From the IMG/VR virus record IMGVR_UViG_3300042486_000337, positions 1-59,357 of that record: 59,357 bases of DNA. The stretch is one strand, 5' to 3'. The notes under the pieces are model-generated. The model had not been told where the DNA came from. It saw only the letters and a list, made by a program, of their open reading frames with translations, and did not search any database. Origin of the DNA: a virus. Its lineage: Duplodnaviria; Caudoviricetes. Below are positions 54,438-54,548 of this stretch, piece after piece. Position 1 is the first letter of the stretch; each line of letters opens with the position of its first letter. The translations under genes and the position numbers were made by a program.

Positions 54438-54548
54438 TTACCTTATATTGGATTCACCAATAACCGAACTATGCGTAATACGCGGATACCAACAGATACT
54501 AATCTGGGGTTGACGTTTACTAATCATATTTTTGTTTATTGGTTTCAT
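54438..54548 (-). CDS. Leader peptide 1 (MKPINKNMISKRQPQISICWYPRITHSSVIGESNIR)
   Basis: 36-codon ORF between promoter and terminator; codons 8-24 all match tRNAs of the downstream array; contains antiterminator AGTTCGG. Confidence 0.75.
   Translation of the reverse strand: MKPINKNMISKRQPQISICWYPRITHSSVIGESNIR

Follow-up and report, generated by a model that had tools for sequence, protein, structure and literature searches.

A probable multiplexed tRNA-supply attenuator upstream of a tRNA array in a T4-like freshwater phage

Why should the codons of a short open reading frame (ORF) call up, almost one after another, the very transfer RNAs (tRNAs) that are encoded just downstream of it? The question is posed by a locus in IMG/VR virus record IMGVR_UViG_3300042486_000337, whose positions 1 to 59,357 make up the window, the whole stretch of DNA analysed here (59,357 bases, 31.5% G+C). 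The source phage is T4-like, encoding a Gp23 capsid, a Gp20 portal and a T4-type terminase. On the minus strand of the window lies a unit consisting, in order, of a predicted promoter, a leader ORF containing the motif AGTTCGG, an intrinsic terminator with CCGAACT in its 5′ arm, and an array of ten tRNA genes (Table 1). From the anatomy of this unit, its conservation, the covariation of leader with array, the covariation within an antiterminator helix, and where the sensor codons lie with respect to it, we consider it likely to be a ribosome-mediated (leader-peptide) transcription attenuator controlling the phage tRNA array.

In the mechanism that we propose, a host-type promoter would start a short transcript whose first gene is the 36-codon leader, and codons 8-24 of this leader would poll in turn each codon family of the ten tRNAs encoded downstream. 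Were any polled tRNA scarce, a ribosome translating the leader would stall within the run and leave AGTTCGG free; free AGTTCGG would pair with CCGAACT as it emerges, the terminator hairpin would not form, and the polymerase would continue into the tRNA genes. With all ten tRNAs plentiful, the ribosome would move quickly onto and past AGTTCGG (codons 25-33 and the stop codon), the terminator would form and transcription would end. The outcome would be negative feedback on tRNA supply, isoacceptor by isoacceptor. The shortage itself could come from a codon-usage mismatch, host shut-off or host anticodon-nuclease defences. On balance we also favour a broader proposal, namely that a large clade of freshwater T4-like phages carries multiplexed tRNA-supply homeostats, with one roll-call leader per array, shortage of any isoacceptor switching on the whole array, and leaders being rewritten when tRNA genes move.

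Leader codons and the content of the tRNA array

The genes of array 1 stand in the order Pro-TGG, Ile-GAT, Lys-TTT, Cys-GCA, Trp-CCA, Tyr-GTA, Gln-TTG, Arg-ACG, Met-CAT, a 106-amino-acid ORF, and Ser-GCT. A first-pass annotation of this DNA had proposed that 17 consecutive leader codons enumerate all ten of these tRNAs. Inspection of codons 8-24 (ATG ATT AGT AAA CGT CAA CCC CAG ATT AGT ATC TGT TGG TAT CCG CGT ATT) bore this out: each of the 17 belongs to one of the array's ten decoding boxes, and none of the ten goes unused, CCC being readable by Pro-UGG through ordinary four-way wobble. The match to exactly the array set, as the annotation put it, holds for this run and not for its flanks, with ATA, AAC and AAT in the head and ACG CAT .. 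TCG GTT .. GGT GAA TCC AAT ATA AGG in the tail falling outside the set. The tail (THSSVIGESNIR) owes its sequence to the RNA element and not to the set of tRNAs, and carries the switch rather than sensor codons.

An in-set run of this length occurs once in the six frames of the window; the next longest, of which there are two, reach 10 codons, and every other in-set run covers at most seven boxes. With a probability of 0.336 that a codon lies in the set (118,710 six-frame codon positions), 6.9 × 10–4 runs of at least 17 codons are expected by chance in the whole window, an estimate that the same annotation had suggested making. The chance that a 17-codon in-set run takes in all ten boxes is 0.027 with six-frame codon frequencies and 0.0068 with those of coding usage. 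Among 2,496 other small ATG-initiated ORFs (22-37 codons, from the window and related loci), eight cover all ten boxes anywhere along their length. The Cys-Trp-Tyr codons do follow the order of the Cys, Trp and Tyr genes, as had been remarked, and CWY or CSWY appears in 18 of the 22 distinct peptides whose array holds all three. This is a conserved block only; general collinearity of leader codon order with tRNA gene order was tried and rejected (mean Kendall tau 0.03, n = 56).

The exact terminator was found in eight IMG/VR loci, and a degenerate family pattern (GTTCR, gap, CCCYGAAC, loop, GTTYGGGGTTTT) led to 101 stretches. The terminator pattern gave 131 matches in 104 IMG/VR loci and the window, 122 of them followed by a tRNA on the same strand within 400 nucleotides (nt). 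In 120 units, distributed over 99 stretches (98 IMG/VR loci and the window), there is also a leader ORF, with the locus extending at least 150 nt upstream. This short ORF, of at least 15 codons, is conserved at the same position in the 120 units and encodes 62 distinct peptides; ORFs near-identical to leader 1 occur in L002, L004 and L007. When the same pattern was applied to cellular genomes as a control, a tRNA followed in two of 122 matches, both of them phage-like units. The tRNA genes were called with ARAGORN and Rfam, ARAGORN overlooking some of them (for example Lys and Arg in L002).

Across the 120 units, the codons of the leader change with the tRNA set downstream. Enumeration was scored in 39 distinct leader/array pairs with complete arrays, in which 329 of 346 array boxes were found in the array's own leader (recall 0.951); re-paired leaders and arrays averaged 0.687 and peaked at 0.824 over 5000 trials, and random small ORFs averaged 0.598 with a highest value of 0.688. 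On a given contig, boxes found solely in a leader's own array were represented at 1.00 and those found solely in the other array at 0.27, own exceeding other in 41 of 41 comparisons. Leaders track the isoacceptor present, not the amino acid. The sensor windows of Arg-ACG-only arrays hold no AGR and 12 CGN codons, those of Arg-TCT-only arrays 26 AGR and no CGN; for Ser-GCT-only arrays the counts are 16 AGY and two TCN, and for arrays with only the TCN-reading Ser-TGA or Ser-GGA they are one AGY and seven TCN.

Arrays vary widely across lineages, and the leaders vary alongside them. In L001, L005 and L008 the two arrays of the window are merged (Val, Glu, Phe, His, Ser-TGA, Ile, Lys, Cys, Trp, Tyr, Gln, Arg-ACG, Met, Ile-TAT, Ser-GCT), and the leader, MRTTMVHISSFKQQEICSWYRYVENCSSENKVK, has codons for 14 of the 15 boxes and no Pro codon. 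Pro-TGG in this lineage (L005) lies in an upstream Asn/Gly/Asp/Thr/Ala/Leu/Arg array, whose leader MKNLNTLLATLAPTNGGGRDLCSRVQI has a Pro codon; in the close relative L003 the corresponding array is without Pro-TGG and its leader, MKNLNTLNRTTLALGNDDRGNLCVKFRI, is without a Pro codon. A three-gene array (Leu-TAA, Arg-TCT, Leu-TAG) is preceded by the leader MRTTLLHTLLLDRQGLLRRLMP, and an array of His, Ser, Ser, Tyr and four Leu genes by MRNLSLHSLSYLYLHSVGSGDILM. The signal that links leader to array recurs in a dozen or more leader types that differ clearly from one another.

The antiterminator helix and the position of the ribosome

The annotation had further claimed that AGTTCGG can pair with CCGAACT in the terminator 5′ arm, where this complement occupies 54405-54399; both folding and compensatory changes at two positions support the pairing. 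In minimum-free-energy (MFE) folds, the full-length transcript forms the terminator, a 15-base-pair (bp) hairpin with a U-run, and the transcript lacking the 3′ arm pairs AGUUCGG with CCGAACU. In an alignment of 64 distinct sequences, 96.6% of the cells of the seven-pair antiterminator helix are paired, against at most 53.1% in slid registers, and the terminator helix is 95.3% paired. One variable pair of the antiterminator is AU in 31 sequences, GC in 31 and GU in two, with none unpaired; the other is AU in 27, GC in 11, UA in eight and GU in three, with 14 unpaired. The covariation score is 0.242 vs. 0.110 for shuffled alignments, a value reached in none of 500 shuffles.

At the first variable position, the terminator 3′ arm keeps a constant G with either C or U in the 5′ arm, so the antiterminator is no mere duplicate of that arm. 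The GTTCRG core occurs in all three reading frames depending on subfamily (TGT AGT TCG G, CGT GTT CAG, AAG TTC AGA) and lies after the stop codon in Leu-type leaders; it is therefore a nucleic-acid element and not a peptide motif. These data bear on the possibility that the leader is a chance ORF match, or that the GTTC repeats are DNA operator sites of a protein rather than RNA partners. In its favour, GTTC is shared by the antiterminator, the two arms of the terminator and the spacer motif. The run statistics, the 62 distinct conserved leaders and the leader/array covariation speak against such an origin, as do the Watson-Crick compensatory changes between antiterminator and 5′ arm, which include A-U where the 3′ arm keeps G·U, and we strongly disfavour it.

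The placement of the sensor codons relative to the helix was scored in the 39 pairs. Codons of the own array make up 56-95% at positions –21 to –4 codons from the antiterminator core and 18-47% at –3 to +3; over the earliest leader codons the share is mostly 16-42%. The boundary of the matching codons, about four codons before the antiterminator, is what ribosome occlusion predicts: a ribosome halted with its A site at least four codons upstream would not cover the antiterminator. A fold with ribosome-footprint constraints, which the first-pass annotation had proposed, was carried out for this window with bases –15 to +11 around the A site held unpaired, these dimensions being assumed values. 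In the model the antiterminator is free with the A site at any of codons 1-23 (pairing at least 0.93); pairing falls to 0.47 for codon 24 and to 0.00 for codons 25-33, where the antiterminator is blocked, and is 0.02 for the stop codon. By this model, sensor codons 8-24 therefore fill the zone in which a stall would keep the antiterminator free.

The same model can be asked whether the polarity is reversed, with smooth translation giving read-through and a stall giving termination. In favour of such a response, the antiterminator becomes partly free again in the model at codons 34-36. It is opposed by the model's main feature, a stall in the sensor run freeing the antiterminator and a ribosome over codons 25-33 blocking it, and by the distance from the ORF end to the terminator 5′ arm, which at 22-55 nt is too great for the hairpin to be melted by a ribosome that terminates there; scarcity answered with positive feedback would, moreover, be self-defeating. 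We regard reversed polarity as very improbable.

Promoters, spacer motifs and the evidence against attenuation

The predicted promoter P1 combines TTGACA with TATTATTG, and an A-rich stretch separates it from the leader ATG (54548). Alignment of 42 related upstream regions anchored on TTGA[CT] gave the consensus ATTTGACAA-N5-AAAnTTTTnnTAnnTTTGAnATAATTAT (also written ATTTGACAA-N5-AAAnTTTTnnTAnnTTTG), which we take to resemble the –33/–7 promoter type of Bacteroidota. The string TTGAC-N17-21-TAnnTTTG has no exact match in the window, P1 there having TATTATTG.

Downstream of the terminator, the 91-base spacer before array 1 holds a candidate second promoter, P2, and TAnnTTTG promoter-like motifs occur in 49 of the 69 distinct terminator-to-tRNA spacers of the family, that of the window included (54344-54337). 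To judge from these motifs, the array may be transcribed from a second, unregulated promoter without read-through, which would weigh against attenuation. The leader could then be a stand-alone, always-terminating unit whose codon match serves another end, for example a trans-acting RNA or peptide that reports tRNA sufficiency. The strong terminator, with its 15 bp and U-run, would suit such a unit, and a precedent exists in trpL of Sinorhizobium, for which two papers describe released attenuator RNAs and leader peptides with trans functions (PMC6614838, PMC7298713). A stand-alone unit leaves unexplained why the complement of the terminator 5′ arm is kept at the end of the ORF with compensatory changes, why matching codons cease about four codons before the antiterminator, and why the leader matches the adjacent downstream array and not the other arrays of the same phage; a downstream promoter is, in addition, compatible with attenuation. 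We judge the stand-alone unit unlikely, while leaving it a real if small share of our confidence. The argument that short terminator-to-tRNA spacers exclude a second promoter was considered and rejected, TAnnTTTG-like motifs abutting or overlapping the terminator even there.

A second spacer motif raises the possibility of a different output. The GTTCTTTGAAAT motif, 17 nt upstream of tRNA-Pro, has five matches in the window with at most one mismatch, four of which sit 7-17 nt upstream of the 5′ end of a tRNA or of the transfer-messenger RNA (tmRNA). In the form GTTCTTTGA(A/C)AT it is conserved 7-17 nt 5′ of stable RNAs (the copy in Table 1 and those at 58604-58615, 58439-58450 and 51110-51121), preceding the first tRNA of both arrays, tRNA-Glu and the tmRNA, and it is found in most family spacers; a copy also stands before a protein gene in Flavobacterium phage vB_FspM_immuto (L291, ~10345-10356). 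It is possibly a promoter or a processing signal. Were it a processing or binding site, a translated sensor might act through RNA processing, stability or a downstream promoter instead of intrinsic termination. The element that covaries with the leader 3′ end is, however, the 5′ arm of a canonical hairpin and U-run terminator, and we hold such an output to be improbable.

Further observations weigh against attenuation as proposed here, or reduce the force of the numbers cited for it. Precision over whole leaders is just 0.60 (0.598, vs. 0.377 for re-paired leaders and 0.363 for random small ORFs) and in the sensor window 0.76 (527 of 698 codons), the other 171 of the 698 codons belonging to tRNAs not found in the own array; the own leader, in turn, misses 17 of 346 array boxes. 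The family sequences are related, and the counts therefore overstate the number of independent events. The family was, besides, gathered by a pattern that fixes the helix core, with four invariant core pairs carrying no weight and only the two variable pairs counting as covariation. A looser scan that dropped the antiterminator requirement found 11 of 66 new terminator matches to precede tRNAs; five of these 11, from one lineage, have no GTTCR upstream, and in that lineage the terminator looks as if it follows the 3′ end of a longer ORF.

Other such points concern the switch and its transcript. The antiterminator has only 7 bp vs. 15 bp in the terminator, and the switch would therefore have to be kinetic, a competition between helices as they form. 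In the footprint model, AGTTCGG is partly exposed at codons 34-36 (pairing 0.58-0.79), and an untranslated leader gives an antiterminator pairing of 0.90, which predicts read-through. No convincing anti-antiterminator (1:2) was found in the folds or the model; the full-length MFE structure pairs leader codons 2-5 with the bases just 3′ of AGTTCGG. The distance from the start of AGTTCGG to the end of the ORF, 32 nt in the window, is the family maximum. Metatranscriptome contigs extend over the leader (X18, 54405-54608; X17, 54514-54708), their ends, strand and level not being readable and their source possibly being DNA. The RNA-library runs contained just 5-7% of the sampled words.

Known systems, source phages and neighbouring features

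In the trp, his, leu, thr, ilv and pheA attenuators of Enterobacteria, a leader ORF with regulatory codons is followed by a terminator and an antiterminator that share a 5′ arm, and the position of the ribosome decides which helix forms. The phage unit has the same anatomy of leader ORF, regulatory codons, terminator and competing antiterminator. Unlike these biosynthesis-operon attenuators, it would regulate tRNAs rather than enzymes, it sits in a phage, and no clear 1:2 anti-antiterminator was found in it. In place of a run of codons for one amino acid, the phage leaders present an isoacceptor-tracking roll-call of up to 16 codon boxes, each usually represented one to three times. A search of the whole window gave no match at gathering score to Rfam leader families (His_leader, Leu_leader, Thr_leader, Trp_leader and similar), T-box or riboswitch families, nor did the leader families or T-box match at E up to 1 in 50500-59357. 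The sole Rfam hit on the leader, MicC (29.5 bits vs. a gathering score of 90, E 0.38), was taken as noise.

T-box RNAs work without an ORF, binding uncharged tRNA directly, and pheM senses a single amino acid. Like pheST (pheM) and T-box control of synthetases, the phage unit would exert supply-side feedback on translation by reading charged-tRNA status; unlike them, it would have the tRNA itself as the controlled product. What is new is the choice of tRNAs as controlled genes, the multiplexed roll-call leader and the viral setting; the regulatory logic is shared with the trp, his and leu attenuators.

It has long been asked why tRNA genes are carried by phages and how they are controlled. For the arrays of T4, T5 and many jumbo phages, compensation of codon usage or replacement of host tRNAs cut by defence nucleases has been proposed. 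The window resembles these phages in having a clustered tRNA set in a T4-like genome. In the portions of the literature covered by our search (attenuation, tRNA arrays and operons, and phage tRNAs, including parts of PMC10264068 and PMC11464382 on phage tRNA arrays, with most subscription journals outside its scope), a leader-peptide sensor before phage tRNA arrays is not described. If true, attenuation of the array would be the first case found of tRNA genes under feedback control in cis, and it would extend attenuation from amino-acid to tRNA supply, from one amino acid to as many as 16 boxes, and from cells to viruses. It would also allow the tRNAs that a phage handles as a single regulatory unit to be recognized from sequence alone, supply a natural reporter for decoding capacity, and permit a direct test of whether phage tRNAs are a response to tRNA-targeting defences. 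The natural variants with matched changes in leader and array would serve as a ready-made mutational series.

DNA near-identical to the window is carried by many lake-water metagenomes, and the host of the leader-unit phages is probably a member of the Bacteroidota. Among cultured phages, the closest capsids are those of Microcystis phage Mel-JY01 (42.5% identity) and of vB_FspM_immuto (42.2%); the latter, the one of the two inspected, has four scattered tRNAs, and the leader unit was not found in it. In blastn searches for cultured relatives, the window region gave tRNA matches only, and two other leader units gave none in the phage collection. One family unit (L137, terminator at oriented position 4553), one of the two phage-like units from the cellular genomes, lies on a 375-kilobase contig of a Bacteroidota metagenome-assembled genome, a contig that is either a jumbo phage or a host-associated element.

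Table 1. Features of the two leader units and their arrays in the window
Feature	Positions	Strand	Details
Predicted promoter P1 of the leader transcript	54586..54615	-	TTGACA 54615-54610 and TATTATTG 54593-54586; read from sequence
Leader 1 ORF, 36 codons and stop	54438..54548	-	peptide MKPINKNMISKRQPQISICWYPRITHSSVIGESNIR; stop 54440-54438
Sensor run, codons 8-24	54477..54527	-	all codons inside the ten array-1 decoding boxes; ten of ten covered
Antiterminator 5′ strand, AGTTCGG	54464..54470	-	leader codons 27-29
Intrinsic terminator	54375..54409	-	5′ arm 54409-54398, loop 54397-54391, 3′ arm 54390-54379, T-run
Candidate promoter P2, promoter-like TAnnTTTG motif TATCTTTG	54337..54344	-	between terminator and array 1; read from sequence
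GTTCTTTGAAAT motif	54301..54312	-	upstream of tRNA-Pro
tRNA array 1, ten genes	52945..54283	-	ARAGORN and Rfam agree
106-amino-acid ORF inside array 1	53032-53352	-	tRNA-Met / tRNA-Ser-GCT interval; ORF call
Paralogous unit, leader 2	58683..58829	-	own TTGACA promoter, ORF, antiterminator and terminator
Leader 2 ORF, 25 codons	58829-58752	-	MRTSINHISSFVEQHEVCFSFGMRC; serves array 2
Leader 2 antiterminator	58753-58746	-	GAAGTTCG; overlaps the stop codon; complementary to the terminator 5′ arm
tRNA array 2	55643..58586	-	served by leader 2

A paralogous unit stands before the second array of the window, where a 27-base terminator identical to that of unit 1 recurs at 58709-58683. The 24 codons after the start of leader 2 cover all seven of the array-2 boxes called by ARAGORN (Val, Glu, Phe, Thr, His, Ser-TCN and Met), a doubtful Thr call among them, made from one of the odd tRNA-like genes described below; 91 of the 2,496 small ORFs also cover the seven boxes. 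In the close relative L003 a third unit is found at oriented positions 6321-6470, where the leader MKNLNTLNRTTLALGNDDRGNLCVKFRI stands before genes for Asn, Gly, Gly, Asp, Thr, Leu, Arg-TCT and Leu, and by analogy the source phage probably has a third leader and array just beyond position 59357.

Array 2 also contains five paralogous tRNA-like genes on the minus strand (55643-55759, 56633-56737, 56893-56991, 57288-57367 and 57490-57615) that begin with AGTCAGG or AGTCGGG. In the Rfam alignment their acceptor, D and T arms are normal and 22-61 nt of unrelated sequence replaces the anticodon arm; the ARAGORN anticodon and intron calls are inconsistent (Gly-ccc, Pyl-cta, Thr-tgt and Val-cac). Blocks richer in G+C lie between the tRNA genes at 54650-55150 and, similarly, at about 58130-58340, 57620-57850, 56400-56600, 56060-56180 and 55760-55940. 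These blocks are possibly structured, and Rfam gave no match to them at E up to 1. In a single metatranscriptome run from a lake (X16), word depths of about 200-380 are reached by contigs that are 90-95% alike to 54825-55130.

Adjoining the tRNA arrays, a tmRNA (Rfam RF00023, 88.8 bits) lies on the plus strand at 51129-51511, with the motif GTTCTTTGAAA before it at 51110-51121. Farther away, at 45433-47445 on the plus strand, the phage encodes a ClpB-like double AAA+ ATPase (AAA_2, AAA_lid_9 and ClpB_D2-small).

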